Source of the DNA: Candidatus Omnitrophota bacterium
Lineage (GTDB): Bacteria > Omnitrophota > Gorgyraeia > Tantalellales > Tantalellaceae
Direction of reading: 5' to 3'
Assembly: GCA_043812935.1 (NCBI GenBank)
Contig: JBDRLO010000076.1
Span: forward strand, 1 to 62,042
DNA: 62,042 bases
The translations under genes were made by a program, and so were the position numbers. The notes beneath the pieces were generated by a model that did no database searches, was not told where the DNA came from, and saw nothing but the letters and a program-made list of their open reading frames with translations. This document shows positions 2,277 to 59,758 of the stretch, in pieces. The stretch's first letter is position 1. Every line of letters starts with the position of its first letter.

Positions 2277-2310
2277 TTAACCGGTTGGCCGGTTAGCCCG
2301 TTAACCAGTT
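2277..2310 (+). repeat. CCGGTTAG-family octamer tandem repeat
   Basis: ttaa-ccggttgg-ccggttag-cccgttaa-ccagtt just after the stop codon. Confidence 0.8.
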
Positions 2311-2328
2311 ATTTGTGTTGTAAAAAAT

Positions 2329-2373
2329 GGACAGCTGCCATTTAAATGTTTTTTAACAAAATGGCAGCTGTCC
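2329..2373. repeat. 15-bp inverted repeat (GGACAGCTGCCATTT family), probable terminator/MITE-like hairpin
   Basis: ggacagctgccattt (2329-2343) / aaatggcagctgtcc (2359-2373) followed by ttttt; related to the 32678-32740 hairpin. Confidence 0.75.
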
Positions 2374-2483
2374 TTTTTCTTGTTGTAAATATTTTTCATT
2401 CAGGGTATCATATCATAAAAGTTGATCAGCGAAGTGAGTAATTAAATTATAATAATAGTAATACCATTTTTAGAAAAACTTTT

Positions 2484-3917
2484 ATGACAAAAAAAACCGC
2501 GAAATACATATTTTTGTTTTTTTATGTGTTTGCGGTTTTTTTTATAGCAGGTTGTCAGACGCTAAAAGCTCCGCCGAAACCTGATTTAGAATGGGTCCCG
2601 CCCAAATGGGAAAAAACAATCAAAAAACCGGACAAAGTATGGAACTTAATACGAGAAGAAGAAATAACTGATCAAGAGCCGTTAACTTTAGCGGAACTTG
2701 TGGATATGGCTTTTGCTAATAATCCGGTTATACGTAATGCCTGGCAGAAAGCGCGCGCTCGCGAAGCGGAAGTAAAACAAGCCCAAAGTGAATATTATCC
2801 TCAAGGTACGGTTTCAGGGGATATTACCAGGCAGAAGAAAGTTGCTACGCGTAAAATAGAAGATTCCAACAATTACAATTACAGCCCTAAAGCGGTTATT
2901 ACTTACATGATACTCGATCTTGGAGGCAGAGACGCTTCTGTGCGGCAGGCTACACAGGAAGTTATTTCAGCAAATTTTACGTTCAACCGTACAATTCAGG
3001 ATTTACTTTTTGATACAGCCAAGGCTTATTATAGCTTTTACAGCGCGCAGTCTGATTTGAAGGCGAAAAAAGCGAATGTTGAAGACGCTTCTACCGCGTT
3101 AGAGGCGGCTTCAATTAAATTCAGCACAGGGTTAGCTTCTAAACTCGACGTGCTCCAGGCAAAATCCAATTATGAAGATACTCTTTATTCTTTAGAAGAT
3201 GCCAAAGGCACAGTTTTTACAACAAAAGGCGATTTAGCCGAAACAGTGGGGTTTGCGCCTGATCTTGATTTTGAAATTACCGCTCCGGACGAGAATGTTC
3301 CGTTAAATATTACTTCGGAAAATGTGAGTATGCTTATTGAATCAGCTTTAAAAGAAAGGCCGGACATAGGCGCGGCAAGAGCAGTTTTATATTCAAAAGA
3401 GGAAGCAGTTAAAGTAGCGAATTCAGATTTATGGCCTACATTAAATATTACGGGATCCGCGGAAAAAAGATGGTACAGGTTTTTTGGAGATGAAGAGACA
3501 AATTGGCAGTATTACGATTGTTCAGGATATTTCAGCGTTAATTGGGATATCTTTGACGGCTTCTATAAATACTCAAAACGGCGCCAGGCTCAAGCTGAGC
3601 TGGATGCGGAACGTGAACAATTGAAACAAACGGAACTTAATGCCGCCAGTGACGTATGGACTAAATACTATAATTTAAAAACAGCTGTTAAAAAGCTTGT
3701 GTTTAGTAAATCTTTCCTGGAAACGGCGCAAGCTTCACATGATTTGGCGTTGGAAGGATATAAATCGGGTATTAAAAGTATACTTGATCTTTTGGAAGCA
3801 CAAAGTCAATTGCAGGAAGCAAGAAGCAAACTTGTAGAATCACAAAAAGATTTATTTGTATCATCAGCGGGTCTTGCTCGGGCAATGGGCACGCTTAGCG
3901 CAAAAGATTTAAAATAG
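2484..3917 (+). CDS. TolC-family outer membrane efflux lipoprotein
   Basis: Lipobox-like FFIAGC; two OEP repeats (NNPxI...QSEYYP; RPDI...LWPTLNI...VNWDIFDG); first gene of a tripartite operon. Confidence 0.9.
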   Translation: MTKKTAKYIFLFFYVFAVFFIAGCQTLKAPPKPDLEWVPPKWEKTIKKPDKVWNLIREEEITDQEPLTLAELVDMAFANNPVIRNAWQKARAREAEVKQAQSEYYPQGTVSGDITRQKKVATRKIEDSNNYNYSPKAVITYMILDLGGRDASVRQATQEVISANFTFNRTIQDLLFDTAKAYYSFYSAQSDLKAKKANVEDASTALEAASIKFSTGLASKLDVLQAKSNYEDTLYSLEDAKGTVFTTKGDLAETVGFAPDLDFEITAPDENVPLNITSENVSMLIESALKERPDIGAARAVLYSKEEAVKVANSDLWPTLNITGSAEKRWYRFFGDEETNWQYYDCSGYFSVNWDIFDGFYKYSKRRQAQAELDAEREQLKQTELNAASDVWTKYYNLKTAVKKLVFSKSFLETAQASHDLALEGYKSGIKSILDLLEAQSQLQEARSKLVESQKDLFVSSAGLARAMGTLSAKDLK

Positions 3918-3925
3918 CATTTGTT

Positions 3926-3962
3926 TGACCGGGTAATCGGCTAATCGGTTACCCGGCTAACT
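3926..3962 (-). repeat. CCGGTTAG-family octamers, reverse orientation
   Basis: accgggtaa-tcggctaa-tcggttac-ccggctaact upstream of the MFP start. Confidence 0.6.
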
Positions 3963-3977
3963 AAAAAGGGGACGACA

Positions 3978-5150
3978 ATGCCGGACAATTCGAAAAAACA
4001 ATTAGATCTTGATAAGATTTTTCATTATAAAAATTTGTCTGACCAAAATAAAAAGATTATTATTGGTATTTGCGTGGCGATATTTGTAATTACGTCTTTT
4101 GTTCAAATGCAAAAGCATTTAAAACGTTCTAAACATGAAAAGATTCATCCTAAAAGTGTAAAAATTGAGCAGGTAATTAAGAAAAATGTTCCAATGTATA
4201 TTGATTCTTTCGGGACATTGGTGTCTCCCGAGGATGTTGACATCAGGTCGCAGGTTACCGGAAAGATTAAAAAGGTTTGTTTTGTTGAAGGGCAGGATGT
4301 TTTAATAGGCGATCAACTTTTTATTATTGATCCGAGTGAATATAAAGCGAGCCTGAATAAAGCTGAAGCAACTTTACTGGAAGATGAGGCCCAACTTAGG
4401 CTTAAAAAAGATATCTTAGCAAGAAATGTCGGACTTTTAAAAAAAGAATTAATTTCACAACAGGAATTTGAAGAGTATGAAACGGATGTAGCAGTGACTG
4501 TGGCTAAGGTGGAAGTTGACAAATCTGAAATAGAGCTTGCAAAAATAAATCTGGGATATTGTTATATAGTTTCACCGATTAATGGTGTAACGGGAGTTCG
4601 GCAGGTTGATCCGGGAAATATTGTTTCTGCTAATACCGGGCCGGTTTTGGTTAATGTGAAACAGGTTGATACGCTTTACATGGATTTTACCATTCCGGAA
4701 AAAGAGCTCCCACGAGTTAGGAAAACAATGGCTGAGGGAACCCTGAAAGTGGTGCTTACTGTAACCGGCGATGATACTTCATCTTATACAGGAAAACTTG
4801 ATTTTCTGGAAAATTCAGTGGATGATCAAACCGGAAGAGTTTTATTGCGCGCAACAGTTGATAACAAAAACAGGGCGTTATGGCCGGGGCAGTTTGCGAA
4901 AGTTCAGCTTATTTTAGGAACAATTAAAGATGCGGTTTTGGCGCCGTATTCAGCGGTTCAGCTTGGACAAAAGGGAAGTTATCTTTTTGTGATAGACGCG
5001 CAGAATAAAGCTGATTTAAGGCTCGTGACTGTAGGACAAAAAGAAGAAGACTATATTGTAATTGAAAAAGGTGTAAAGACAGGAGAAAAAGCTGTAACGT
5101 CCGGACAGATGGGGCTAAGGCCTGGAGTTTTGGTTAAGGTTATTGATTAG
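3978..5150 (+). CDS. RND efflux periplasmic adaptor (MFP, MdtA/AcrA-like)
   Basis: N-terminal TM; IRSQVTGKI, IVSPINGVTG, LWPGQFAKV motifs. Confidence 0.92.
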   Translation: MPDNSKKQLDLDKIFHYKNLSDQNKKIIIGICVAIFVITSFVQMQKHLKRSKHEKIHPKSVKIEQVIKKNVPMYIDSFGTLVSPEDVDIRSQVTGKIKKVCFVEGQDVLIGDQLFIIDPSEYKASLNKAEATLLEDEAQLRLKKDILARNVGLLKKELISQQEFEEYETDVAVTVAKVEVDKSEIELAKINLGYCYIVSPINGVTGVRQVDPGNIVSANTGPVLVNVKQVDTLYMDFTIPEKELPRVRKTMAEGTLKVVLTVTGDDTSSYTGKLDFLENSVDDQTGRVLLRATVDNKNRALWPGQFAKVQLILGTIKDAVLAPYSAVQLGQKGSYLFVIDAQNKADLRLVTVGQKEEDYIVIEKGVKTGEKAVTSGQMGLRPGVLVKVID

Positions 5151-5215
5151 CCGGTTATGCCGGTTGTGGCCGGTCTATTGATGTAGATACAATGGAAAGT
5201 CGCACCTCTCCATAC

Positions 5216-5243
5216 GTAGGGACAGGCCCCTGTGCCTGTCCGT
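5216..5243 (+). repeat. GTAG-tagged REP-like palindrome, type A
   Basis: gtagggacaggcccctgtgcctgtccgt; GTAG tag followed by GGACAGGC/GCCTGTCC stem. Confidence 0.85.
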
Positions 5244-5300
5244 TAAATTAATGCATGTGAAATATGCAGCGTGTTACGCTAACAAAAGGATTAACAAAAT

Positions 5301-13175: not shown

Positions 13176-13181
13176 TGTGTT

Positions 13182-13216
13182 TACGCTGCACGTGACACGT
13201 TTCACGTTACACGCAG
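13182..13216 (+). repeat. ACACGNW-family heptamer tandem repeat
   Basis: tacgctg-cacgtga-cacgttt-cacgtta-cacgcag right after the stop codon. Confidence 0.75.
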
Positions 13217-13256: not shown

Positions 13257-13730
13257 TTAAAACCGCATAAATTGGAGAAGGTGTATGGTAAATACACAGG
13301 TGCCGATTATTGTACGGATAAGCCTCAAGCCCTGATTTTTCCAGGAAAAATTTTTTTTCAAAGAAAGGCTAAAAAGCCCTTCAACCAGTAGAAATATTCC
13401 TGCGATGAAAGCAGTCCAGTCTATAAAACTCTGAGTGAACGCGCTTTCAAGTATTTTACAGTCAATGCCCCAAATAAACTGTATTAAATGGACAGTAAAT
13501 ATACAAAGGCCTATTAGTATTCGTATAGTCCGCAAAAACTGGTCAGGGAAAAAAGCAGTTGGATATTTGCGTATTTTATAAATTGCTTCAGTTATCAAAA
13601 ATATTCCTACAAGAAAAGAAAACCAGTCAATTGTAGAATTCGCGAAATTTGTATCAAATAACCGGCAGATTATTAAAAATGCGGTTGTTATTAAGACAAT
13701 GATAATTATAATAGGTAATAGCTTTTTCAT
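13257..13730 (-). CDS. Small integral membrane protein with an internal duplication
   Basis: 157 aa, ~5 hydrophobic helices; IDWFSFLVGIFLITEA...LRTIRILIGLCIFTVHLIQF recurs as IDWTAFIAGIFLLVEG...LRLIRTIIGTCVFTIHLLQF. Confidence 0.8.
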   Translation of the reverse strand: MKKLLPIIIIIVLITTAFLIICRLFDTNFANSTIDWFSFLVGIFLITEAIYKIRKYPTAFFPDQFLRTIRILIGLCIFTVHLIQFIWGIDCKILESAFTQSFIDWTAFIAGIFLLVEGLFSLSLKKNFSWKNQGLRLIRTIIGTCVFTIHLLQFMRF

Positions 13731-13765
13731 GAAAAAAGAGTATCATAGAAGTATCACAGGGTCAA

Positions 13766-13812
13766 GTTGGTTAGCCGGTTGGCCGGTTAGCCGGTTAGCC
13801 AGTTAGCTGGTT
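13766..13812 (+). repeat. CCGGTTAG octamer tandem array (about 6 units)
   Basis: gttggttag-ccggttgg-ccggttag-ccggttag-ccagttag-ctggtt, followed by a truncated REP (gtagggacgcctgtccggt, 13814-13832). Confidence 0.85.
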
Positions 13813-13876
13813 TGTAGGGACGCCTGTCCGGTACAAAAACGATATTATAGCAAATTCAAAAAATAATGTCCCGAAT

Positions 13877-13986: not shown

Positions 13987-14013
13987 GTAGGGGAGGGCCT
14001 TGCGTCCTCCCGT
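13987..14013 (+). repeat. GTAG-tagged REP-like palindrome, type B
   Basis: gtaggggagggccttgcgtcctcccgt. Confidence 0.8.
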
Positions 14014-15035: not shown

Positions 15036-15095
15036 GTAGGGGAGGGTCTTGTGACCGAAGGAAATCCCGAGGATATCCGAAGGGCGTCCTCCCGT
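15036..15095 (+). repeat. REP type B with nested insert, between convergent genes
   Basis: gtaggggagggtcttg-[tgaccgaaggaaatcccgaggatatccgaaggg]-cgtcctcccgt. Confidence 0.8.
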
Positions 15096-20916: not shown

Positions 20917-22524
20917 ATGAAAGCAAAAGGATCTATATTGATAATGACATTGTTGGTGGCAGTTAATTTGTTTGTGGTAAAGATTTTTGCTTTATCGCCG
21001 GAATGGTTGAAAAACATTTCTCCTGTTATAAATGGCAGTATTTTATGTTTTGAAAATATTAAGGGAGAAACGGATTTTTACATTGGCACGGATGAAGGTA
21101 TGTATTGGACAAGAAACGCAGGGGAAGAATGGGAGAAAATACTTTTGCCGCCGGGTATTTTTAAGATTTATGATATAGTTCTTACAAGTAAAAATATTTT
21201 CATACTTTGTGAAAAAGGCATATATAAATCAGACAGGTTTGAGTTGTTTTGGAAACGTGTATCCAAGATGAAAGGTATAACAGGGATCGCCTCTTTTCTT
21301 AAAGAAGAAAATGAGTGGGCGGTGTTTGCTTGGTCGGGTAAATGCTTTTATGAAATTGATAAGAATGGAATGAAAAAAATAGGGCCAAAGTTTTTAAAAG
21401 ATGATATTCAGAATGTATCGATGAGAGACGAATATTTATTTTGGACAGCAGCCGGCAGCGTATTTATTTTGGATATTAGAAATAATAAATGGGATGAAAT
21501 ACGTCTTTTTAGTGAAAAGAGTTTTGTGGAAGATGATGACCCCGTGGATAAGAATAGGTTCGAATCGGAATTAAATGAAGATACGTTAAAAGTAACGTCT
21601 ATTAAAGACATGAGTTTGTTTAGCGATAGCAGCATTATTATTTTGGATAGTAAAGGGATACATGTTTTAGACAATAATGGCAGATTAAAAGAGGATATTA
21701 GCGTTTCAGGATTGCCTTTGCGTGATCTGGTGCAGCTAACGTGCGAGGATAATTATGTTTTTGCAGCGTCCGACGGCAAAGTTTTTTTATACAGTTTTGA
21801 GACAAAATCCTGGCAGTTAATTTTTGAAACAACTTTACCTGGGAAAATATCCCGCATAGGTGTGTACAAAAATATGTCAAATGGTATATGTTTGTGGGTT
21901 GCCGCTGATAAAAATCTCTATAGGAAAAATATCGAGCCTGGAAATCTGATATTTGTGCCGGATAATTTTGAAAAGAAATATCAATTGGAAGCATTATATA
22001 AACCTTCGATAAAAGATGTCCAGAAAATGGCAATTGACTATGCGGAAGTAAACAATGACAAAATTAAAAAATGGCGGAATGCTTCAAGATGGAAAGCGGT
22101 ATTCCCGAAATTTTCAATTAGTTTTTCAGAATCAATAGGGGATAATGTGGAAATATACAAAAGCGCGACCACAGCTTATGTTGTAAGCGGACCGAAGGAA
22201 AAAGACAATGATTGGGATTTTAGCCTTAGTTGGGATTTTTCAGACTTAATCTGGAATGACGCTCAGACCAGTATAGATGTCAGGAGCAAATTAATGGTTC
22301 AGTTAAGGGAAGAGATTCTCGAAGAAGTAACGCGGTTATATTTTGAGAGAATAAAGATTTTACTATATATACAGGAAATGGAAAGAACCGCGAATCAAAT
22401 GCATGCATGCGGAACAAAAGGATTTTTAGAAAATTTGCAAAAATTACATGAAGTTACAGCTTATATAGACGCTTTAACCGGCGGAGAATTTTCTGAAGCA
22501 ATCAAAACAGATTTAGGAACATAG
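20917..22524 (+). CDS. Exported beta-propeller (YCF48/BNR-like) fused to a single OEP/TolC-like half repeat
   Basis: Signal peptide; beta-rich repeats (FYIGTDEGMYWTRNAGEEW, GIYKSD); C-term PSIKDVQKMAI...AVFPKFSISFS...WDFSLSWDFSDLIW...LREEILEEVTRLYFER. Confidence 0.6.
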   Translation: MKAKGSILIMTLLVAVNLFVVKIFALSPEWLKNISPVINGSILCFENIKGETDFYIGTDEGMYWTRNAGEEWEKILLPPGIFKIYDIVLTSKNIFILCEKGIYKSDRFELFWKRVSKMKGITGIASFLKEENEWAVFAWSGKCFYEIDKNGMKKIGPKFLKDDIQNVSMRDEYLFWTAAGSVFILDIRNNKWDEIRLFSEKSFVEDDDPVDKNRFESELNEDTLKVTSIKDMSLFSDSSIIILDSKGIHVLDNNGRLKEDISVSGLPLRDLVQLTCEDNYVFAASDGKVFLYSFETKSWQLIFETTLPGKISRIGVYKNMSNGICLWVAADKNLYRKNIEPGNLIFVPDNFEKKYQLEALYKPSIKDVQKMAIDYAEVNNDKIKKWRNASRWKAVFPKFSISFSESIGDNVEIYKSATTAYVVSGPKEKDNDWDFSLSWDFSDLIWNDAQTSIDVRSKLMVQLREEILEEVTRLYFERIKILLYIQEMERTANQMHACGTKGFLENLQKLHEVTAYIDALTGGEFSEAIKTDLGT

Positions 22525-26380: not shown

Positions 26381-27169
26381 ATGAAGATTATCGTGTTTAT
26401 AAAACAGGTTCCGGACACAACAGATGTTAAAATCGATCCTAAAACAAATACTCTTAAACGAGAAGGGGTGGAGTCGGTTATTAATCCATTTGATATGTAC
26501 GCGATAGAAGAGGCGCTGCGCGTAAAAGAAAGAATGGATGGCGTTGAGGTGGTTGTTGTCAGTATGGGGCCGCCGCAAGCCGCGGAAGCTTTGAGGAAAG
26601 CAATTTCAATGGGGTGTGACTCCGGCATTTTGGTAAGTGACAGAAAATTTGCCGGAAGTGATACATGGGCAACAAGTTATACTCTTGCGCAGGCAGTGAA
26701 AAAGATTGGAGACTACAAAATAATTTTTTGCGGTAAACAGGCCTCAGATGGGGATACCGCGCAGGTTGGCCCGGGAATTTCTACACATTTGGATATTCCC
26801 CAGGTAACCTATGTTAAAAAAATAGAGAAATTAAATGAAAACCAGGCAACTGTTGAACGGATGACGGAAGAAGGTTATGACATAGTGGAAACACCTTTAC
26901 CTGCAGTTATAACTGTGGTTAAAGAAATAAATGAACCGCGCCTACCGTCTTTAAAAGGTAAAATGAAAGCAAAAAAAGCTGAAATACCGGTTTGGACGGC
27001 AGAAGACCTTGGTTGTGATGAAAAAAAGATCGGTCTTGATGGGTCGCCTACAAGAGTTGTAAAAATTTTTACACCGCCGCCGCGTGAAGGCGGACGTATT
27101 CTTGAAGGAGAACCTTCGGAAAAAGCTAAAGAATTAGTCGTGCTTATTAAAGAAGTTATAATTGGTTAG
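26381..27169 (+). CDS. etfB: Electron transfer flavoprotein beta subunit
   Basis: KQVPDT, NPFD, FAGSDTWAT, GKQASDGDTAQVG, EINEPRLPS. Confidence 0.95.
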   Translation: MKIIVFIKQVPDTTDVKIDPKTNTLKREGVESVINPFDMYAIEEALRVKERMDGVEVVVVSMGPPQAAEALRKAISMGCDSGILVSDRKFAGSDTWATSYTLAQAVKKIGDYKIIFCGKQASDGDTAQVGPGISTHLDIPQVTYVKKIEKLNENQATVERMTEEGYDIVETPLPAVITVVKEINEPRLPSLKGKMKAKKAEIPVWTAEDLGCDEKKIGLDGSPTRVVKIFTPPPREGGRILEGEPSEKAKELVVLIKEVIIG

Positions 27170-27190
27170 CCGATTTATTGATTTATTAAT

Positions 27191-27248
27191 GTAGGGACAG
27201 AGCTTGTCATGTACCCTGTGTGGTACATGGCCCCCCGTGTCTGTCCGT
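27191..27248 (+). repeat. REP type A with nested hairpin insert
   Basis: gtagggacagagcttgt-[catgtacc-ctgtgt-ggtacatg]-gccccccgtgtctgtccgt. Confidence 0.7.
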
Positions 27249-28661: not shown

Positions 28662-28856
28662 ATGTTAAACCTGGAAATAAATAGAAAATACACAGTACAG
28701 CAAACCGCCAATATGTTGGGTGTTTATCGCGGAACGGTTATTAATTATGAAAAAAAAGGTATATTTCCCATACCGCGTAGAAATCCAATAAACGGTTACC
28801 GGGAATACACTGAGGAAGATATAACCATTTTAAAGTCCATACTTGGAAGAACGTGA
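28662..28856 (+). CDS. Stand-alone MerR-family HTH protein (64 aa)
   Basis: YTVQQTANMLGVYRGTVINYEKKGIFP...NGYREYTEEDI; upstream RBS agagg. Confidence 0.85.
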   Translation: MLNLEINRKYTVQQTANMLGVYRGTVINYEKKGIFPIPRRNPINGYREYTEEDITILKSILGRT

Positions 28857-28863
28857 AGAGTGT

Positions 28864-32677: not shown

Positions 32678-32740
32678 TATAAATAGGGACAGCTACCATT
32701 TAATTGCTTTGCAATTAAATGGTAGCTGTCCCTATTTATA
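32678..32740. repeat. Perfect 30-bp inverted repeat between convergent genes (terminator/MITE-like)
   Basis: tataaatagggacagctaccatttaattgc-ttt-gcaattaaatggtagctgtccctatttata; preceded by two more TATAAATAGG copies (32652, 32665). Confidence 0.9.
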
Positions 32741-32747
32741 GGATGTG

Positions 32748-40300: not shown

Positions 40301-41146
40301 AGTGGATTTATTTGTTCGGAATATTTCGAAGGAAAATATTATCGCGATAATTTTCTAAAAGTACGTTTAATGACAACAAGATTACCTATTCAAAGAAAGA
40401 GAACTGAAAATCAACGAAATCAAACAAAAACGAAAAACATGAAAACTCCTAAAATTTTATGGGATGGTGAAAGAATTATCCGAAACGTTGAAGAAATTGT
40501 ACCTCGTCTTGTTCAAGGGATGATAGATACGGCTGAAGAGGCTTTCCAGAAGAAAGAAAAAGTTATTTTATATCTTGACGAAGCGTTTTCACAAAACAAT
40601 GAAGAAGAAGTTTCAGGTGCAATAGAAGACGTAATTAATTTACTAACAAATATTAAAAACAACAATAAAAGCCTTTTTGAATTTTTGAACGGTAAACTGG
40701 AAGTGCGTTGCGGGACAAAAGAAGAATTTAAGTCTAAAAAAGGAAAGGTTAAATCGGAAAATATTATAGTTGTTACTACTAAAGCCAATTATGAAGCAGG
40801 TTATTTTTCAACTATTGACGGGAATGGTATTATCGCCGCTATTGATGACAAAGATTTGCCCCAAAAGGCATATTGTCCTCTGGTTGAAACTGTTTTTTTC
40901 GCGATTGGTAAGTATCTCATTGGTAAGGATCTCAACTGGAACGAAGAAAAACTTTGCGAATGGTATGAAAAAATTCCGAATGTAACGCTTATAAAAGACC
41001 TTTCAAAAGCGGAGTATGCCGATTTATTTAATGGTAACGCGAAAAGCATAATTGTAAGATTAATACCAAATGCCGTTGAATTCAAAACAGATGATAAACA
41101 TGCTGAAATAATAAGGCATGTAAGGGATGTTCTGAGTAAGGCATAG
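34343..41146 (+). CDS. Giant secreted multidomain protein: HExxH zincin-like, TPRs, RelE/ParE-like, Fic-like, two class I SAM methyltransferases, shared C-terminal domain
   Basis: ATG at 34343 gives a signal peptide ending VMWA (the ORF track starts at TTG 34325); THELRH; TPR helices; IRLSEKA...LFRIR...RVVFTF; NGNHR; ILSLGIGRG and ILSLAVGNG; ends IPNAVEFKTDDKHAEIIRHVRDVLSKA. Confidence 0.82.
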   Translation: MRLKKNNNIIKIIALGLSFSLLWNGVMWADPNVFEKETLQPLTRFTDFTTNEFISGIVGKYLKIYFRGIENDFRNLNVQHLQRLINERLKQIKALKNVPPEVNNKIPDKVRTDKKNACIVDLGSVKIRYYNHQIPGAEVPDRDPDNRFYKAYPVFRGDYLSKQFLVEEQNFAASNKFHPNSPGPALFFDFKTDTWRALKDVPEASRKMSEHDVMNIACKELVFDRNKTSLSAGNPVYDYVSKDSGFEEIKLYILNDDEFKQNLTDKKSQCLAKGLITHAGTYTDPATGLSRALNLFMPESVYNYFTELLEKMSSMKYAGELLAFWKTHELRHLKDRKADIDGKFTESEKDAAEIILWMSKTLWALKKNNLHDAFEYVNKIETIESHVLCLCEMRGRLHEASGNLQEACDNYFTALAIMNSDNAKVLIGHTLETKTIEMIESLQQIVDRNVNKFPINKKKAANAIVNPKISHNLFVARMEAVSTSPLFSFDEDMKHNNLCIIYFACVPIMCSYIENILREKNKITSFAKEIVRELLKLIEKGKLVNPILNETENDYLGRVYYIAGEVFAGLGSTNKAFECFEQALDYDDTVPVYYARKAEFLVVTKKTMESLAEARELLSQAEQKFGSLEVFSSAWVFISEKEVSIKNAFEEEQEMHMFYEEMLELYKNGRYKTCQERIVEYENGKNGSPKKKISAELMRLKRDAHSALKSSLNAQKWIKMGDMSQAEWHFRRVLLKNPNDSNACKIVNIFERETEMQKQQVITEHLLQQKLSEAKKYVSSAKDREERGLIAKARKSYQSALAELAQISYKNEEAALLKTELEKELKEIENLPDRIEKVHGNNHDEEPKKRQKIVTKKNEEAPKNKEENDEDYGKPKINRKIRLSEKAARLLGKKNDIDREKILNMIKNVAAGRRDNVKKIEPRKNLFRIRGDEKDVESRVVFTFCDDSSMLVLLIKKKSQIKYPNILKHFTEGFDYGPIMASSEEMEDFEKRIKASKNENVLMAIEFLTGGVLILFVCEIFRQIWHGKVCKKLIGRHSKLAAAGNFIFREKSYFPSNIEKIIHGLIVFGSKGVAKVSEFFKIVIELSKIAIQKKKYFGIFQKPVQLWYDRSVTAQIPKEKIMKNLELIVANAENLEEETKQFGFGRQLKTIDIGSYVKSLSILQNMLNNTNISTYRLKNYIREAVTEIFCKQVNFYREEPLKEDVELLTETFDYILSEESRHLVKEDALKFAVGIFIDMLKSKKMLMNGNHRIISMIMNFILLKNGFPCFVLTLDNVVKYYAISKSIQRGDRNYSDDEITEFFRKEIEKNREKFNWFNWIKKCLKMPGLKNPVFLKENKGSFVVTPNENKDSDLSVPLKEIKTPADIVTMKAPAASPIELDARVDLKYITGLISQARERTDEANISEAVGYINVHAPPFNGSRINPANIKLFSIDLGKKLGIPRFKMAESAQDLIYVFPIYDSEKNILKLYATKQYFESQLKNNALALAEAIDHEYTEKVLGYSHRVACSRSYFFATEKNQLTPFHNFYINQIISEGNFSLAKFIVPERHASKDVIEAFENNKTLIGKIENYDKRFFDYLCAVVRLRDFSKFLIRQIDKNIAKQNYAAFKDSDTILLDGVESGMSPLTMPDETELREKLFDVISKESTGQGKILSLGIGRGLFEAPFVGAGYDMTGMDFCPEVLSCAKKRGIKTIEADVDDQTVWENLHKNHAKFDTVIIPESIGYYDEDKLFENIKTILKPGGDLYILVSAELAGLSFGYKGFNYNQIKEKLKRSGFLFNKKTQCRHYNGKKTTICLVKASLPVENKNTAVEAIKKQYSVFDGSESLFGGISGHISTVASPEASELRKKLSQVILKQTGPSSKILSLAVGNGIFEENFVRAGCTVTGVDCTPEVLELAKQRGINTIEADVNNSNLWQELEKKEKFDAVIISETIGYFNEDVLFERIKKVLNPGGRIYILTTRNSEERMPDYKRFNSRRIRAKLRKSGFICSEYFEGKYYRDNFLKVRLMTTRLPIQRKRTENQRNQTKTKNMKTPKILWDGERIIRNVEEIVPRLVQGMIDTAEEAFQKKEKVILYLDEAFSQNNEEEVSGAIEDVINLLTNIKNNNKSLFEFLNGKLEVRCGTKEEFKSKKGKVKSENIIVVTTKANYEAGYFSTIDGNGIIAAIDDKDLPQKAYCPLVETVFFAIGKYLIGKDLNWNEEKLCEWYEKIPNVTLIKDLSKAEYADLFNGNAKSIIVRLIPNAVEFKTDDKHAEIIRHVRDVLSKA

Positions 41147-41620
41147 TTACGCGTAACGCGTAGCACGTTACACGGAACATGTAGCACGTTACACGGAACA
41201 TGCAACACGGAACACCTCACACGAAACACGCTACACGAAACACGCCACACGAAACACGCTACACGAAACACGCTACACGAAACACGCTACACGAAACACG
41301 CTACACGGAACACGGAACACGCAACACGGAACACGAAACACGCAACACGGAACATGCAACACGTAACACGTAACACGGAACACGCAACACGGAACACGCA
41401 ACACGGAACACGCTACACGAAACACGCTACACGAAACACGCTACACGAAACACGAAACACGCTACACGAAACACGCTACACGGAACACGCAACACGAAAC
41501 ACGCAACACGGAACACGTAACACGGAACATGCAACACGTAACACGTAACACGGAACACGCAACACGTAACATTTTACACGTAATATGTTACACGCAATAT
41601 GTTACACGATTCACGTTGAT
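41147..41620 (+). repeat. Long ACACGNW heptamer tandem array (about 60 units)
   Basis: Units acacgaa, acacgct, acacgga, acacgca, acacgta, acatgca in mixed order starting right after the stop codon. Confidence 0.95.
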
Positions 41621-41702: not shown

Positions 41703-42188
41703 ATGAGTTCTCAAAAAAAAGAATCTATTGAAAAAAATTTGTTCCGTTTATTGAACACGAAAAAACGAACATTGTCTTTTGCTGAATCATGTACAGGCGG
41801 GTTAGTTTCTAACCGTTTTACAGATATCCCAGGTAGTTCTAAATATTTTTTAGGTAGTATTGTTAGTTATTCAAATTCCGCTAAAATATCTCTTCTAAAT
41901 GTGCCTAAGGAAACCATAAGAAAGTACGGAGCTGTTAGCCGTCAAACATGTTTGGCCATGGCAAAAGGTGTAAAAGATATTTTTTGTTCGGATATTGCTG
42001 CCGCGGTTACAGGTGTTGCGGGCCCTGGGGGCGGAACTGCTAAAAAACCGGTAGGGCTTGCTTACGTAGCGGTTGTTTCAAACAGAAAAAAAATATGTAA
42101 AAAATTATTTTTTAAAGGCTCACGGAAGATTATTCAAAATAAATCTGCTGATGCGGTGTTAAAAATGGTTAGCCGGTTAGCCGGTTAG
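41703..42188 (+). CDS. cinA: CinA C-terminal domain protein (PncC, NMN deamidase)
   Basis: AESCTGG, PGSSKYFLG, AVTGVAGPGGG...KPVG; ATG at 41703 preferred to TTG at 41664. Confidence 0.88.
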   Translation: MSSQKKESIEKNLFRLLNTKKRTLSFAESCTGGLVSNRFTDIPGSSKYFLGSIVSYSNSAKISLLNVPKETIRKYGAVSRQTCLAMAKGVKDIFCSDIAAAVTGVAGPGGGTAKKPVGLAYVAVVSNRKKICKKLFFKGSRKIIQNKSADAVLKMVSRLAG

Positions 42189-42228
42189 CCAGTTTTCGTG
42201 AAACGTGTAGCGTGTGGCGTGTAACGCA
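42168..42228. repeat. CCGGTTAG octamers (supplying the cinA stop) followed by reverse heptamers
   Basis: ggttag-ccggttag-ccggttag-ccagtt, then cgtgaaa-cgtgtag-cgtgtgg-cgtgtaa. Confidence 0.8.
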
Positions 42229-42233
42229 AAATT

Positions 42234-42800
42234 ATGAATGAAATACGTACTTTTATTGCGGTGGAACTTTCTGACGAAGCAAAGGCTGAATTGAGCAGGA
42301 TCCAGTCTGTTTTTCAGAAAAATCCTGATAATATCAAGTGGGTAAAACCTGATAATATTCATCTTACTTTAAAATTTTTAGGAAATATCCAAGAAAACAA
42401 ATCCGAAGAGATCGAAAATGTTTTAAAAAAAGCAGTTTTAGGAATAGCTCCGTTTGAAATTGTTTTACATGGGTTGGGTGTGTTTCCTGGAGAAAATGTT
42501 CCGCGTGTATTGTGGGTAGGAATAAAAGACGGCGCAAAACAACTAACGGATATTGCTGATAAAATTGAAACCCTTTTGGCTGAAAAAGGTTTTCCTAAAG
42601 AAAAACGTAACTTCAGCGCGCATCTTACGTTAGGAAGAATAAAGCATATTAAAAACCGTACTTTATTTAAAAATTTGTTAAATTCTGTCATAGTAAAACA
42701 GGTCTCAGTCCATGTTGGCCGAATTGTGCTTTTTAAATCAAAGCTTAGTTCAGAAGGAGCTTTGCATGAAGTCTTACAGGTTATAAATCTTACCAAATAG
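42234..42800 (+). CDS. thpR: RNA 2',3'-cyclic phosphodiesterase (2H family)
   Basis: RTFIAV; two HxT motifs (HLTLKFLG, HLTLGR). Confidence 0.93.
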   Translation: MNEIRTFIAVELSDEAKAELSRIQSVFQKNPDNIKWVKPDNIHLTLKFLGNIQENKSEEIENVLKKAVLGIAPFEIVLHGLGVFPGENVPRVLWVGIKDGAKQLTDIADKIETLLAEKGFPKEKRNFSAHLTLGRIKHIKNRTLFKNLLNSVIVKQVSVHVGRIVLFKSKLSSEGALHEVLQVINLTK

Positions 42801-43983: not shown

Positions 43984-44461
43984 TATAAAAATGAATGGTT
44001 TCGCGGTAAAATGCAGAAAATACGTTTTACGGTTAATAGCTTTACGTGCCAGGAGTGCGTGGGAGATAGAAAATCGTTTGAAAAAAGCCGGATATGATAA
44101 TAATGTCAGAATTAGTGTAATTACCGCTCTTAAACAGGAAAAATTTATTGATGATGTAAAATTTGCCAAGGAATGGGTTGATTCCAGGCTTCGGTTGAAT
44201 CCTCGTGCCGTTAATGTTATACGGGCAGAACTTGTTAGTAAAGGTGTTTCAGAAGATATTATTGAGCAGACGTTCCTGGATAAAAGCGAACAATTAGATG
44301 ATCATATAATAGCGCTAAGGTTGATAGAGAATAAATTTGGGTTTAAAAAAAAAGTTTCATTAGAAGAAAAGGGCAAAATTAAACTTTTCAGGTTTCTTTT
44401 GAGTAAAGGATTTGACGCGGAACTTGCGGAAGAGGTCATACAAGAAAAATTCCGAGAGTAG
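43976..44461 (+). CDS. recX: Regulatory protein RecX
   Basis: [24 protein letters not shown]; overlaps the recA end. Confidence 0.88.
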
Positions 44462-44481
44462 GGGACAGGCATGCCTGTCCC
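44458..44481 (+). repeat. REP type A variant overlapping the recX stop
   Basis: gTAGgggacaggcatgcctgtccc; reverse heptamers follow at about 44505-44533. Confidence 0.75.
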
Positions 44482-44562
44482 GGGTATACGTTTTATCCGG
44501 TAGCGAGTGAAAAGTGAAACGTGTTACGTGAAAATTGTAATGCATAACAAATGATCAATATT

Positions 44563-48514: not shown

Positions 48515-48571
48515 TTGGTTGACCGGTTGTCCGGTTAGCCAGTTATCCGGTTAATCAGTAAGGGAGGAATA

Positions 48572-49204: not shown

Positions 49205-49355
49205 TTGGTTGGCCGGTTGGTCAGTTAGCTGGTTTGCCAGAGTAGGGACAGGGCTTGCCCCTGTTCGTAATAAAATGGTAGGGACAGGCCCCCGTGCCTG
49301 TCCGGTACATTAATGTGTAACCTGCAACGTGCAACGTGAAACGTGTAATGTGAAG
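49204..49355. repeat. Ordered composite: octamers, two REP type A, reverse heptamers
   Basis: ttggccggttgg... (49204-49236); gtagggacagggcttgcccctgttcgt (49242); gtagggacaggcccccgtgcctgtccggt (49278); aacctgc-aacgtgc-aacgtga-aacgtgt (about 49319-49347). Confidence 0.85.
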
Positions 49356-50767: not shown

Positions 50768-51500
50768 TGTTAAAGACGGGCGCGTGGTAAAAGGAGTTAA
50801 TTTTGTTAATTTACGCGATGCCGGCGATCCTGTGGAAAACGCTAAGATTTATAATGACGAAGGCGCTGATGAACTGGTTTTTTTAGATATAACAGCCAGT
50901 TATGAAAAACGCAAAACAATGGTGGATGTTGTAAGGAAAGTTGCTAAAAAAGTTTTTATGCCTTTTACTGTGGGCGGGGGTATTTATTCAAAAGAAGATA
51001 TCCGGGAACTTTTGAATGCCGGTTGTGACAAGATATCAATAAACACAGCAGCTGTTTTACGGCCGGATTTTATTAAAGAAGCAAGCGATAAGTTCGGCCG
51101 GCAATGTATTGTTGTGGCTATTGATGCTAAAAAAAAGGGTGCGGATTCATGGGAAGTGTATATAAAAGGCGGCCGGGAATCTGTAGGGCTTGATGCGGTA
51201 AGTTGGGCGAAGCAGGTGGAAGAGCTTGGTGCTGGTGAAATTCTTCTGACAAGCATGGATGCTGACGGTACGAAACATGGGTACGATATAGATTTGACCC
51301 GGGCTATTAGCGAAGCTGTAAATATTCCGGTGATTGCATCCGGCGGGTGCGGGATCCCGGAACATTTTTATGAAGCATTTGAAAAAGGTAAAGCGGATGC
51401 GGCGCTTGCGGCATCAGTTTTTCATTTTAAAGAATTTACAATAGGCGAAGTCAAAGATTATCTTAAACGGAAGAACATAGCTGTACGTGTAACTGATTAG
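50736..51500 (+). CDS. hisF: Imidazole glycerol phosphate synthase cyclase subunit
   Basis: [40 protein letters not shown]; RBS aaggagg before ATG 50736; overlaps the hisA end. Confidence 0.96.
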
Positions 51501-51557
51501 CCAGTGTGCCGGTTATCCAGTTAACCGATTTGTCGGGAACAGGCATGCCTGTTCCGT
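51497..51557 (+). repeat. Octamers plus REP type A variant
   Basis: ttagccagtgtgccggttatccagttaaccgatt, then gtcgggaacaggcatgcctgttccgt; reverse heptamers at about 51655-51704. Confidence 0.7.
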
Positions 51558-51717
51558 TATGGCCCGGACAGTTTAGAATTAACGCAGTACATAATATGTT
51601 TTCGCTCTTCTTTATAGGAGCGGATTATGATGAAGGGGATGCTTTTAGCTTGAGACGTGCTGCGTGCAACTTGTTACGTGAAACGTGTATGCGTGTAGCG
51701 TAACTAGAAAGGTTATT

Positions 51718-52098
51718 ATGGATTTTATTGATAAATTAAATTTTGATGAAAAAGGCCTGATCCCCGCGATTATACAGGACGAAAAATCAGGACACGTTTT
51801 AACTCTTTGTTATATGAATAAAGAGGCTTTGGAGAAAACTATTAAAGAAAAAAAGATTTATGTGTTTCGGCGGTCAAAAGGCCGAATAATGATAAAAGGC
51901 GAAAGTTCTGGATGCGTACAGTTTGTAAAAAAAATGTACATAGATTGCGCGGAAAATTCCGTTCTTTTTAAAGTAGAACAAACTCGTGCGGCATGCCATG
52001 AAGGATATTTTAGTTGTTATTTTAGGGAAATAGATGATAGCGGCAAGGTTGTTATTAATGAACAACGTGTATTTGATCCGAAAGAAGTGTATAAATAG
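51718..52098 (+). CDS. hisI: Phosphoribosyl-AMP cyclohydrolase
   Basis: GLIPAIIQD, KGESSG, DCAEN, ACHEGYFSC. Confidence 0.88.
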   Translation: MDFIDKLNFDEKGLIPAIIQDEKSGHVLTLCYMNKEALEKTIKEKKIYVFRRSKGRIMIKGESSGCVQFVKKMYIDCAENSVLFKVEQTRAACHEGYFSCYFREIDDSGKVVINEQRVFDPKEVYK

Positions 52099-52196
52099 TT
52101 GGCCGGTTAACCTGTTAGCCGGTTAGCCAGTTTGTAGGAAACAGGCCTGTACCCGTTGGGATGCATGTCTGTTCCCTAATTTGGTTGAGTAAAACT

Positions 52197-52277
52197 GTTT
52201 GGTTCGTATGTTCGGCTTAAACAGGGCCTCGGCCGCCAGAGGCGTCCTGCGGAACTCGCCTGACATCTGAACCAAAC
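52197..52277. other. Rod-like ~80-nt hairpin in the trpE leader
   Basis: gtttggttc/gaaccaaac 9-bp closing stem, atgt/acat, cagg/cctg, cctc/gagg. Confidence 0.55.
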
Positions 52278-52326
52278 GTCTTTTGCAGGAAGCCGGTATG
52301 GTTGATTGAAACGTAGTGGAGAATTT

Positions 52327-56195: not shown

Positions 56196-56198
56196 GTG

Positions 56199-56239
56199 TT
56201 GGTTAGCCGGTTAACCGGTACGCCGGTTTGCCGGTTAGT
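56199..56239 (+). repeat. CCGGTTAG octamer array
   Basis: ttggttag-ccggttaa-ccggtacg-ccggtttg-ccggttag. Confidence 0.8.
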
Positions 56240-56282
56240 TTAAATGAAGAAGGGCGAATAGAATAATCGGGAGTGTTGTAAA

Positions 56283-56954: not shown

Positions 56955-58143
56955 AGTACCAGACAAAAAAGGGTATTTCGGGAATTTTGGTGGAACATAT
57001 ATCCCTGAAACGCTTATGCCGGCAATAAAGGAATTGACCGAAGCATATGAAAAGATTTCAAAGAATAATTCTTTCAAAAAAGAGTTAGCCGATTATTTAA
57101 GTAAATACGCGGGCAGGCCTACTTTATTATATTTTGCTGAGAGGCTTACGAAAAAGCTTGCCGGACCTAAGATATACCTTAAACGTGAAGATTTACTGCA
57201 TACAGGGGCTCATAAAATAAATAATACAATCGGGCAGGCTCTTCTCGCATTGAGAATGCGGAAAAAAAGGTTAATTGCCGAGACCGGAGCAGGTCAGCAT
57301 GGAGTTGCTACTGCAACCGTTGCGGCGCTTTTTGGACTTAAATGTGATATTTATATGGGGACGGAAGACATTGAAAGGCAGAGTTTAAATGTTTCGCGTA
57401 TGAAATTGTTGGGAAGCAGGGTTATTCCGGTAAACAGCGGTTCATGTACTTTAAAAGACGCGATGAATGAAGCAATAAGAGATTGGGTTACGAATGTTCG
57501 TGATACTCATTATGTTATTGGTTCTGTTGCCGGGCCGCATCCTTATCCAATGATGGTCAGAGATTTCCAGGCTGTGATTGGGAATGAAGTTCGCCGGCAG
57601 ATAATGCGGGAGGAAGGTAAACTGCCTACGCATCTTGTTGCCTGTGTCGGTGGAGGAAGCAATTCAATGGGGCTTTTTTATCCGTTTTATTGGGATACTA
57701 AAATAAAGTTTATTGGGGTGGAAGCCGCCGGGTTTGGTCTGAAAAGCGGGCGTCATGCTGCGGCCTTAATGAGAGGCAGAGTGGGGGTGCTTCACGGAAG
57801 TAAAAGTTTTGTGCTGGAAAACGATGATGGTCAGATTAAACTTGCTCATTCAGTTTCAGCCGGATTGGATTATCCTGGAGTAGGGCCAGAACATGCATAT
57901 TATAAAGAAACGCACCGAGCGGAATATGTTTCTATAAATGATAAAGAAGCTCTTAAAGGAGTGACGTTGCTTTCAGAGACAGAAGGTATTATTCCGGCGC
58001 TTGAAACTGCGCATGCCGTGTTTTATCTTACCAAATTGGCTAAACAAACTAAGAAAAGCGATATAGTAGTTGTTTGTTTATCCGGGCGCGGGGACAAAGA
58101 TATGGACATAATTAAGGAATCGTTAATGGTTAATAGTGGATAG
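56938..58143 (+). CDS. trpB: Tryptophan synthase beta chain
   Basis: [46 protein letters not shown]. Confidence 0.98.
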
Positions 58144-58270
58144 TGGATGGTTGAATGGTTTATGGTTGAATTGAATGGTCGTAGGGGAGGGCCTTGAGAC
58201 CGAAGGGAATCCCGAGTATACTCCGAGGGGTGTCCTCCCGTAATAGTGGATGGTGAATAGTGAATCGAAT
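58128..58270 (+). repeat. ATGGT/ATAGT heptamer runs flanking a REP type B with nested insert
   Basis: atggtta-atagtgg-atagtgg-atggttg-aatggtt...; gtaggggagggccttg-[agaccgaagggaatcccgagtatactccgaggg]-gtgtcctcccgt (58181-58241). Confidence 0.8.
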
Positions 58271-59063
58271 AGATGAAACGTTTAAAAAATTGAAGGCTGA
58301 AAACAAAGCTGCATTTATACCGTATATAACAGCAGGGGATCCTGATATAAATACTACCAAAAAACTTTCGCTTATTTTAGCTGAATCCGGAGCAGATATT
58401 ATTGAGCTTGGCATACCATTTTCTGACCCGTTGGCAGATGGTCCTACAATACAAAAAGCTGTTGAACGTGCTCTTAATGCAGGCTGTTCTGTGAAAAAAG
58501 TTTTTAACATGGTTAAAGAATTAAGGTCTTGTATTCAAATCCCGCTGGTTTTTATGACGTACTACAATATTGTTTTTAATTATGGGATAGAGAAGTTTGT
58601 TCGTGATGCTAAAGTTTCGGGTGCGGATGGTATTATTGTTCCGGATCTTCCGATGGAGGAGTCTTTTGCGATCAAAACTATAGCGGATAAATACGAGTTT
58701 AACGTTATAATGCTTACGGCGCCTACCACGCCGATAGAGAGATTCAAAAAAATTGCGAATTTTTCAAAAGGGTTTATTTACTATGTGTCTGTAACAGGAG
58801 TTACCGGTATGCGGGATAACCTTTCAGGTAATTTAAAAACGAATATAAAAAACCTTAAAAGAGTAACAAAAAAGCCTTTATGTGTAGGGTTTGGTGTTTC
58901 AGATGCCGGGCAAGCAAAAGATATTGCTGCTGTTGCGGATGGTGTAATCGTTGGAAGCGCGATAATTAAAAAAATTGAGAAAAATCTTCAAAGTAAGAAT
59001 GCGATGGTTAACGAAATTGAAATTTTTGCGAGTAATATTGCTAAAGCTGTGCATTCTGTTTAA
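58260..59063 (+). CDS. trpA: Tryptophan synthase alpha chain
   Basis: IPYITAGDP, ELGIPFSDPLADGPTIQ, YVSVTGVTG, VGFGVS, IVGSA. Confidence 0.97.
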   Translation: MNRIDETFKKLKAENKAAFIPYITAGDPDINTTKKLSLILAESGADIIELGIPFSDPLADGPTIQKAVERALNAGCSVKKVFNMVKELRSCIQIPLVFMTYYNIVFNYGIEKFVRDAKVSGADGIIVPDLPMEESFAIKTIADKYEFNVIMLTAPTTPIERFKKIANFSKGFIYYVSVTGVTGMRDNLSGNLKTNIKNLKRVTKKPLCVGFGVSDAGQAKDIAAVADGVIVGSAIIKKIEKNLQSKNAMVNEIEIFASNIAKAVHSV

Positions 59064-59137
59064 GCAGTTCTTCAATGTAGCCGCTGTGCGGTTTTGGTTA
59101 GCCGGTATAGAGACAGGCCCCTGTTGAAGATAAATAT

Positions 59138-59219
59138 GTAGGGACAGGCCCCCGTGCCTGTCCGTAATTGAAAGAGATCAGAATAAAATGCGTAGGGACA
59201 GGCCCCTGTGCCTGTCCGT
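59138..59219 (+). repeat. Two tandem REP type A palindromes
   Basis: gtagggacaggcccccgtgcctgtccgt (59138-59165) and gtagggacaggcccctgtgcctgtccgt (59192-59219); partial copy at about 59106. Confidence 0.88.
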
Positions 59220-59273
59220 TAAAAAAAGCTTTTAAGAAAAAAATAAAACAAGGTACAAGCAGAAGAAGATTAT

Positions 59274-59690
59274 ATGCGGATAGTGGGATTGGATATTGGA
59301 ACCAAGAATATTGGTGTTGCTCTGAGTGATGAAACATGCACTATTGCGCAGAGTAAAGAGGTTGTTCAGAGAAAAAAAGATAGCCAGGCTATTATTGCTA
59401 TTGTTCAAATCCTGGATGAATTCGATGCGCGGGAAATTGTTGTCGGGTTGCCTATAAATATGGATGGGCGAGAAGGCCCACGGGCGGAGGATAGTAGAAA
59501 TTTTGCGCGAAAACTTCAGGAAAAAACAGGTTTACCCGTTCATTTGTGGGACGAACGGTTAAGTACTAAAGAAATGGAAGATGTTTTGATCGGAGCTGAT
59601 GTTTCTCGAAAAAAAAGAAAAAAAGTTATTGATAAACTTGCGGCTCAGATTATATTGCAGGGGTATTTGGATAGCCGGTACGCCGGTTAG
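59274..59690 (+). CDS. ruvX: Holliday junction resolvase-like / pre-16S rRNA nuclease (YqgF)
   Basis: GLDIGTKNIGVALSD, VVGLP, WDERLST, IDKLAAQIILQ. Confidence 0.94.
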   Translation: MRIVGLDIGTKNIGVALSDETCTIAQSKEVVQRKKDSQAIIAIVQILDEFDAREIVVGLPINMDGREGPRAEDSRNFARKLQEKTGLPVHLWDERLSTKEMEDVLIGADVSRKKRKKVIDKLAAQIILQGYLDSRYAG

Positions 59691-59758
59691 CCGGTTGGTT
59701 TGTTCATTAAGTTAATGCACGTGCTGCGTGAAACGTGAGAACTTTTAAGGAAAAAACT

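Follow-up and report, generated by a model that had tools for sequence, protein, structure and literature searches.

Ordered and polarised repeats in the intergenic spacers of a Candidatus Omnitrophota genome and their possible origin as a young mosaic of REP hairpins and short tandem arrays

The intergenic spacers of a 62-kb contig of Candidatus Omnitrophota bacterium (JBDRLO010000076.1 of assembly GCA_043812935.1; our contig C76, analysed in its entirety and called the window below) harbor three main kinds of repeats, namely arrays of the octamer unit GCCGGTTA, arrays of the heptamer unit ACACGNN, and repetitive extragenic palindromic (REP) hairpins of a family that we call REP1, as well as a second hairpin family, REP2, and minor heptamer families. 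These repeats are ordered and polarised: a stop codon tends to be followed by a forward array, a REP hairpin, a reverse array and then the start codon of the next gene. We give a probability of roughly 0.55 to the explanation that this grammar emerges from the make-up of a young mosaic of species-specific intergenic repeats, selfish or neutral, and is not a start/stop code. The genome also encodes a REP-associated tyrosine transposase (RAYT), which might mobilise the hairpins.

Results

Repeat order in the window and in the genome

The assembly comprises 1.39 Mb in 79 contigs with a G+C content of 37.9%. Open reading frames (ORFs) were called across all contigs (n = 1191, 593 on the plus and 598 on the minus strand, covering 90% of the sequence), with the most upstream start codon used as the start and the first in-frame stop as the end. 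When chance expectations were taken from dinucleotide-preserving shuffles, the motif CCGGTTAG had 9 matches in the window, all on the plus strand, vs 0.85 expected; three phased CGTG heptamers had 50 matches vs 0 expected; and the REP1 head GTAGGGACAGG, with at most one mismatch, had 7 matches, all on the plus strand, vs 0.31 expected, each of these counts exceeding that in every shuffle. Octamer arrays are present at 13 loci of the window, 11 of them forward, the reversed ones being located at 3926-3962 and 28924-28944. Heptamer arrays are forward at 13189, 28866 and 41164, each behind a stop, and reverse at 42194, 44505, 49325, 51653 and 59717, each ahead of a start. The octamer core CCGG and the REP stem are palindromic, and a search of the window against Rfam matched no family in any part of it.

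Arrays were detected genome-wide by two independent methods, a custom motif scan and Tandem Repeats Finder (TRF), and co-directional spacers were oriented with their genes before the orientation of repeats was scored. TRF found 120 arrays of period 7 and 154 of period 8, each with 2 to ~65 copies. In the custom scan of co-directional spacers, sense octamer arrays (n = 69) lie at a median of 0 nt from the stop and antisense ones (n = 35) at a median of 20 nt from the start, while the medians for heptamer arrays are 17 nt from the stop (sense, n = 19) and 27 nt from the start (antisense, n = 34). In the TRF-based detection, octamer arrays nearer the stop and nearer the start number 41:5 in sense and 3:16 in antisense orientation (Fisher p = 2e-8), and heptamer arrays 10:4 and 3:16 (Fisher p = 0.003). 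REP1 copies in co-directional spacers (n = 77) occupy the middle of the spacer, 70 in sense and 7 in antisense orientation. Writing O for an octamer array, H for a heptamer array and R for a REP, with > for sense and < for antisense, spacers most often read O>, O> R>, H<, O<, R> or O>...H<. The succession from stop through forward array, REP and reverse array to start thus holds genome-wide, beyond one contig, and the ordered, polarised repeats that an earlier reading of the window (the original prediction) had described are borne out, both in the placement of all three kinds and in their orientation relative to the nearest start or stop.

It might be argued that the order is an artefact of chance or of ORF calling, in which stop-rich arrays merely set the ends and starts of naively called ORFs; both octamer orientations indeed carry a stop per 8 nt, three units close all three frames, and the use of the most upstream start codons points the same way. 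However, ends defined by the first in-frame stop cannot be moved by the caller, and they were confirmed by alignments of orthologues. Such an artefact would also hit both orientations equally, yet the link between octamer orientation and position is tight, and the motif counts lie above all shuffles. We regard this explanation as effectively refuted.

A rule on spacer edges

In 57 of 64 octamer and 26 of 33 heptamer arrays, it is the 5' end that lies closer to an ORF. As this rule is unchanged under reverse complementation, it is a rule on spacer edges, not on starts and stops. Close inverted pairs of arrays of the same family take the form X> <X 15 times and <X X> twice. As regards a possible kinship with miniature inverted-repeat transposable elements, which have terminal inverted repeats and a target-site duplication and move as one unit, inverted arms are seen in 15 close pairs, and no whole-element copies are common to different loci. 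Lone arms dominate, including 28 lone forward octamer and 14 lone reverse heptamer arrays, and ~30% of the arrays and 9-16% of the REPs are in the 'wrong' orientation. Three asymmetries go beyond a symmetric edge rule: 84-91% of REPs are oriented one way, O> outnumbers O< by 69:35, and H< outnumbers H> by 34:19. The excesses of O> and of H< together give rise to the heterologous order O>...H<, which was found in 8-13 cases vs 1-2 inverted.

REP1 hairpins and their putative transposase

REP1 has the structure GTAG-GGACAGGC-loop-GCCTGTCC, and the genome contains 147 matches to its head (at most one mismatch), 121 full copies and 92 copies with an exact core. REPs are defined by a GT[AG]G tetranucleotide located 0-2 nt 5' of the foot of a hairpin (PMC6006769), and REP1 possesses both such a head and the dispersed intergenic copies typical of REP/RAYT systems. 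Its 5' flank is A/T-rich and typically ends in T, with TTGAT preceding 14 of 92 solo copies, and its 3' flank is GTTA. About one third of the copies come after a forward octamer array and some after forward heptamers, and many are then followed by a ATTAATGC cap and reverse heptamers.

The genome encodes one intact Y1 HUH gene, a 179-aa ORF on contig C39 (~21256-21795), which matches the Pfam profile Y1_Tnp with 38.5 bits (cut-off 23) and contains a HAH motif and a FYDH tyrosine motif. Its relatives, at 34-40% identity, are found in Dadabacteria, Anabaena, Armatimonadia and other groups, with GTAG 'double-foot' REPs beside or inside the gene; these are traits of RAYT subclass 2.4 (Quentin 2018, PMC6006769). 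The hairpins are canonical REPs with a GTAG head, and this gene appears to be their cognate RAYT. Contig C6 has a further Y1-type ORF, whose match to the profile is confined to the C-terminal part and which looks truncated. The surroundings of the C39 gene (~21100-21910) are unusual in their direct-REP layout, the gene being flanked on both sides by ~40-nt tandem units (TTGACCAATATTAAAACAAYAC plus a REP head) that end in a full REP1.

REP1 mostly stands single or in direct tandem, and no inverted REP doublet of the kind known from bacterial interspersed mosaic elements (BIMEs) and REP doublets forming hairpins (REPINs) was found as its basic unit. Direct tandem arrays of 5-8 REP1 copies with a constant period of 52-54 nt and array-specific linkers are located at C67 ~4070-4460, C24 50-300 and C26 330-680 (minus-strand coordinates); several of these arrays lie at contig ends, where they probably broke the assembly. 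An insertion event may be recorded in the window itself, since its REP-less module at 59669-59737 has a matching copy on contig C38 in which a single REP1 unit at TTGAT|TAA is the exact difference, so that the pair looks like an empty and a filled REP1 site. REP1 does not have the form of an intrinsic terminator: it is followed by GTTA and A/T-mixed sequence without a T-run, and copies lie inside the his operon.

Recent insertion into formerly tiny spacers

We compared the window with a relative of the same genus (G001, ~83% nucleotide identity), one from another genus of the same family (G012) and one related at the family level (G013). Positions 42-60 kb are syntenic with relatives, and the orthologous junctions in G013 measure ~0-20 nt. 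The junction between hisF and the next gene is 11 nt long in G001 vs 184 nt in the window, and other G001 junctions carry different repeat families; among the elements of the compared stretch, only the REP2 element at 58118-58265 is common to G001. The octamer family has 86 matches here and 0 in G001, and REP1 has 92 here and 7 in G001. In G012, 115 copies of a one-base REP1 variant (GTAGGGGCAGGCCCC) are mostly in one orientation per contig with a few close inverted pairs, an expansion that is independent of the one described here.

Genome-wide, junctions without elements have a median length of 30 nt (355 of 834 are at most 20 nt) vs 172 nt for those with elements. Among the sense octamer arrays, 56 of 81 start between -30 and +12 nt of the stop, and the stop codon is TAG in 30 of these 56 genes vs 21.5% elsewhere in the genome (p = 3.5e-7), every octamer unit carrying a TAG. 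By these comparisons the elements are recent, species-specific insertions that fill formerly tiny spacers. In a genome that is 90% coding, the gap between a stop and the following ribosome site is the only place where insertions persist, and their ends therefore abut both.

The spacers are mosaics. When each spacer of the window was searched with BLAST against the genome, the shared modules were 25-90 nt long, occurred in changing combinations, and never spanned a whole spacer, which argues for BIME-like mosaics and not for copies of one transposon. This result bears on the possibility that octamers, REP1 and heptamers form one directional composite transposon, moved whole by the RAYT in a fixed orientation, so that the order would simply be the element's own sequence. 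The succession octamers-TTGAT-REP1-GTTAnATTAAT-heptamers does recur at at least 13 loci, and ~125-160-nt units of this type are tandemly duplicated on contigs C26, C27 and C40. The small size of the shared modules led us to reject such a transposon as the main explanation, and three further features make it very unlikely: some modules lack a REP (42163-42224 and 59669-59737), REP1 also occurs after forward heptamers or in tandem arrays, and the pair resembling an empty and a filled site suggests that REP1 moves alone.

Strand asymmetry and replication

The GC skew is ~0.22 genome-wide (~0.2-0.25 per contig, e.g. C59, C72 and C49), and the G-rich strands of the contigs, which we take to be leading, carry 92% of the ORFs. 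The 92 of 1153 ORFs that run against the skew still retain part of it, and a large share of the skew thus appears to be linked to replication. In complete Omnitrophota genomes, nearly all genes lie on one strand per replichore (West-Roberts et al. 2023). As 92% of the genes are co-oriented with the GC skew, gene direction and replichore are inseparable here.

The exceptional genes offer a limited view of the two. The 14 spacers between two lagging-strand ORFs (1431 bp in total) contain no element, where ~3.5 would be expected, and the convergent and divergent spacers yield only 11 REPs. Among these REPs adjoining a lagging-strand ORF, 10 of 11 keep the leading-strand orientation (binomial p ~0.01 vs 50:50, for a small n). 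Six of the adjoining lagging-strand ORFs have Pfam support, the clearest case being a REP located 50 nt past the stop of recN and antisense to that gene, and the single exceptional REP adjoins an ORF without a Pfam match. The evidence from REP orientation leans to the replication strand. For genes on the leading strand, the sense strand is the one that carries GTAG; it is also the lagging-strand template, on which Y1 transposases act (PMC6006769).

For the arrays, G exceeds C on the sense strand in 69 of 96 arrays of period 7 or 8, with a mean skew of 0.12 vs a spacer background of 0.175. Since the skew of the arrays is not above that of the spacers, their 2:1 arm bias needs nothing beyond the strand asymmetry of the genome.

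Could the repeats punctuate the RNA?

The original prediction also offered an mRNA-level code as an inference. Forward octamers and REPs could form 3' hairpins on the stop side, where they would stabilise the cistron upstream or make the polymerase pause, and reverse heptamers could be start-side 5' structures, the orientation being selected as only the G/U-rich orientation folds. The stop-to-start order of the repeats throughout the genome is what such punctuation would produce, and the elements lie inside operons, e.g. in the hisD, hisB, hisH and hisF spacers, where they are probably transcribed. Forward octamer RNA is predicted to fold at -0.35 vs -0.24 kcal/mol per nt for its complement, and reverse heptamer RNA at -0.22 vs -0.13 kcal/mol per nt; the module at 42165-42236 folds with z = -3.4. 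REPs are also known to stabilise upstream mRNA in E. coli.

On the other hand, the module at 59668-59740 folds no better than shuffles (z = -0.05), REP hairpins are near-palindromic and their folding barely depends on orientation, and the orientation bias of the arrays is not above the background strand skew. The arrays and REPs in the 'wrong' orientation, the lack of conservation at orthologous same-genus spacers, and the octamer family not being found in G001 argue against this explanation as well, and we consider it unlikely. Pairing of octamers with heptamers was rejected, as the two are not complementary and each folds on itself.

A variant, which we find decidedly unlikely, is that the fast-turnover modules are interchangeable punctuation of the RNA in replichores transcribed almost entirely in one direction, a G.U octamer hairpin with a REP closing one cistron and G/U-rich heptamers opening the next. 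If so, function would reside in orientation and position, whatever the sequence, and the modules could turn over without being conserved.

Elements of the window

The individual elements of the window are as follows.

2275-2311, plus strand: forward octamer array of ~4.5 units, beginning 4 nt past the stop at 2271
3926-3962, minus strand: reversed octamer array, ending 16 nt ahead of the start (3978) of a gene for an HlyD-type membrane fusion protein (MFP)
5145-5178, plus strand: forward octamer array whose first unit contains the stop TAG (5148-5150)
5216-5241, plus strand: REP1 hairpin with GTAG head and 8-bp GGACAGGC/GCCTGTCC stem
5253-5279, minus strand: degenerate reverse heptamers after a ATTAATGC cap, upstream of the AcrB start (5301)
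13189-13216, plus strand: forward heptamer array in a convergent spacer, 13 nt past the stop at 13175
13764-13814, plus strand: forward octamer array of 6 units, then a truncated REP1, in a divergent spacer, at 33 nt from where the minus-strand ORF 13257-13730 starts
13987-14013, plus strand: REP2 hairpin (GTAGGGGAGGGCC... family)
15036-15095, plus strand: REP2 with nested insert in a convergent spacer, oriented with the leading strand and separated by 35 nt from the stop of a lagging-strand GH1 gene
27191-27246, plus strand: REP1 with a second hairpin (CCATGTACCCTGTGTGGTACATGG) nested in its loop; one octamer unit lies ahead, at the stop (27167-27185)
28866-29035, no single strand: inverted octamer-heptamer module, with forward heptamers at 28866-28893 and reversed octamers at 28924-28944
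28966-28993 (forward) and ~29003-29035 (reverse): heptamer hairpin within 28866-29035, behind the inverted module
41164-41618, plus strand: giant forward heptamer array of ~57-65 units, directly after a gene of 2273 aa
41621-41646, plus strand: REP1 linked to the giant array via TTGAT
42163-42224, plus strand: REP-less module in the cinA/ligT spacer, with forward octamers that supply the TAG stop, followed at once by reverse heptamers whose end lies 10 nt from the ATG
44458-44535, plus strand: REP1-like hairpin with the stop codon of recX inside its GTAG head, followed by reverse heptamers ahead of alaS
48517-48559, plus strand: forward octamer array in the hisD/hisB spacer
49207-49354, plus strand: forward octamers, two REP1 copies (49242 and 49278) and reverse heptamers in the hisB/hisH spacer
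51497-51705, plus strand: forward octamers that enclose the TAG stop, a REP-like hairpin (51532-51555), a unique stretch of ~90 nt and reverse heptamers, ending 12 nt before the ATG at 51718; the junction measures 11 nt in G001
52097-52180, plus strand: forward octamers and a REP-like hairpin (GTAGGAAACAGG...)
56197-56240, plus strand: forward octamer array, 1 nt past a stop
58118-58265, plus strand: REP2 with nested insert within a direct array of ATGGTGA-type heptamers
59138-59217, plus strand: two direct REP1 copies with a period of 54 nt
59669-59737, plus strand: REP-less octamer-heptamer module, its centre TTCAT|TAAGTTAAT resembling an empty REP1 site when compared with the filled one at C38:31785

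Three of the loci named in the original prediction differ in detail from its description; apart from the gene start at 51685 (below), its other examples agree with it. The spacer before alaS, listed there as an example of the full order, has the hairpin and the reverse heptamers and lacks octamers; the heptamers at ~5253 are present in degenerate form; and the octamers near the minus-strand gene at 13730 are indeed found, in a spacer that is divergent. The nested REP-in-REP composite with CCATGTACCCTGTGTGGTACATGG recurs in ~20 other REP1 copies genome-wide. The giant array is built of the variants ACACGAA, ACACGCT and ACACGGA with super-periods of 14 and 21 nt, and it gives rise to a spurious 156-aa ORF on the minus strand (40801-41271). 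The gene called at 51685 most likely starts at the ATG at 51718, as its orthologues align from codon 12.

Other features of the window were noted in passing. A 539-nt spacer contains, at approximately 28740-28860, what looks like a small unannotated helix-turn-helix ORF, MerR-like by eye, with promoter-like and terminator-like sites of its own, which is followed by the inverted octamer-heptamer module. In the convergent spacer at 32652-32747, a 13-nt tandem repeat (TATAAATAGGGAC) leads into a long near-perfect palindrome, of which 57 nt are 100% identical on contig C52 and 47 nt on C17; the palindrome may terminate transcription from both sides or be a further mobile element. A structured-looking segment of 73 nt (52210-52290) upstream of the gene at 52306, without an Rfam match, has an 88%-identical copy at C43:33665.

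Discussion

A mosaic of insertions as the preferred explanation

In the explanation that we prefer, the 7-8-nt arrays would behave as arms of inverted-arm elements, in which the arm on the side of an ORF reads from the ORF into the spacer on either strand; such reading from the outside to the inside yields 'forward after stop, reverse before start' without any polarity of genes. The elements would have inserted into spacers originally of 0-20 nt, the survivors being those between a stop and the next ribosome site, with the octamer often supplying the TAG stop. The GTAG REPs would be mobilised by the RAYT of the genome, an HUH/Y1 transposase of single-stranded DNA, in one orientation, and would form the centres of the elements. 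Arms rich in G and T, namely forward octamers and reverse heptamers, outnumber their complements by about two to one, which matches the strand asymmetry, and if this asymmetry is the cause of the 2:1 bias, the order octamer...heptamer would follow from it. The directional insertion process proposed in the original prediction thus fits with the GTAG REPs, the RAYT and the recent species-specific insertions, while its mRNA-level code is left unsupported by the same-genus comparison, the families being missing from relatives.

Several observations weigh against this explanation. The inverted-arm origin of single arms goes beyond the pairs observed, as most arrays are single arms, and no element of the octamer or ACACGNN heptamer families was found around a gene. 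The only gene for a protein of PF05635 (23S rRNA intervening sequence (IVS) protein, IVP; C49 22054-22368) is bracketed by inverted heptamer arrays, and these arms are ACGACAT-type and neither octamers nor ACACGNN heptamers; the ACGACAT-type family also fills orthologous spacers in G001. As for the putative RAYT, its best NCBIfam match, REP_Tyr_transpos, scores 53.9 bits, under the equivalog cut-off of 80, and the REP1 copies on both of its flanks are direct, in the orientation of the gene, and not inverted. The search for empty REP1 sites gave a single convincing candidate. RAYT-driven insertion may account for the choice of strand by the REPs, which could equally reflect selection on the transcript. 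Finally, the majority orientations of the arrays are also those predicted to fold on themselves as RNA via G.U pairs, and an RNA-level reading would fit them as well.

Relation to known repeats

The original prediction knew of no published case in which the orientation of repeats is tied to gene starts and stops, yet one exists. In Xanthomonas and Nostoc, the heptamers GGGAATC and GGGGAYT lie within 50 bp after a stop on the coding strand, often overlapping the stop, and before a start on the non-coding strand, a rule that holds whatever the orientation of the ORF (Rehm 2015, PMC4692102). These heptamers, of the class of short tandemly repeated repetitive (STRR) sequences or long simple sequence repeats (SSRs), resemble the arrays described here in being intergenic tandem 7-nt units of variable copy number, enriched between co-directional ORFs, as well as in the stop/start position rule, the overlap with the stop, the inverted pairs and a content that differs between close relatives. 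The arrays here share the tandem intergenic units of that class (7 nt, within a range of 5-11 nt) and the abutment of the array's 5' end on the ORF. They differ in that the units GCCGGTTA and ACACGNN, read directly, have no GGG tracts and cannot form G-quadruplexes, in that two unrelated families (8 nt and 7 nt) occupy a spacer in a fixed order with REPs between them, and in that the host carries nearly all its genes on one strand.

With the REP, BIME-REPIN and RAYT systems (Nunvar 2010; Bertels and Rainey 2011, PMC3116915; Quentin 2018, PMC6006769), the REPs here share the 5' GTAG at the foot of a GC-rich hairpin, a presence between genes in some 100-150 copies, one intact HUH/Y1 gene with its own REP on either side, mosaic spacers, nested insertions and tandem REP arrays; in P. 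fluorescens SBW25, the orientation of such tandem arrays likewise differs between one side of the genome and the other, where it is opposite. In contrast to those systems, REPs here are mostly single and unidirectional or in direct tandem, and not inverted doublets, the REPs flanking the RAYT are direct, and REPs are typically joined to 7-8-nt tandem arrays. The IS200/IS605 insertion sequences (IS608 and ISDra2), which transpose as single strands on the lagging-strand template, likewise have a Y1 HUH enzyme, a hairpin with a 5' guide tetranucleotide and an orientation tied to the replication strand, the differences being that here no transposase lies inside the mobile unit and that one hairpin takes the place of left and right ends. 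TTGAT, which often precedes REP1, is the target pentanucleotide of ISDra2, and the flank statistics of REP1 suggest that it might use the same target. The edge rule of heptamer repeats and the REP/RAYT systems are thus already known; here they are combined as a REP/BIME-like mosaic with short tandem repeats.

Conclusions

For annotation, these repeats call for caution, as ~20-30 genes owe their TAG stop to an octamer array and spurious ORFs arise from repeat arrays. For biology, one genome links the unexplained edge rule of heptamer repeats, unidirectional and unpaired REP/RAYT elements, and an extreme layout of genes on one strand. If the orientation of REPs follows transcription, the repeats would become candidate punctuation marks of operons; if it follows the replication strand, genomes of this kind would naturally document the insertion of REPs as single strands, coupled to the replication fork.

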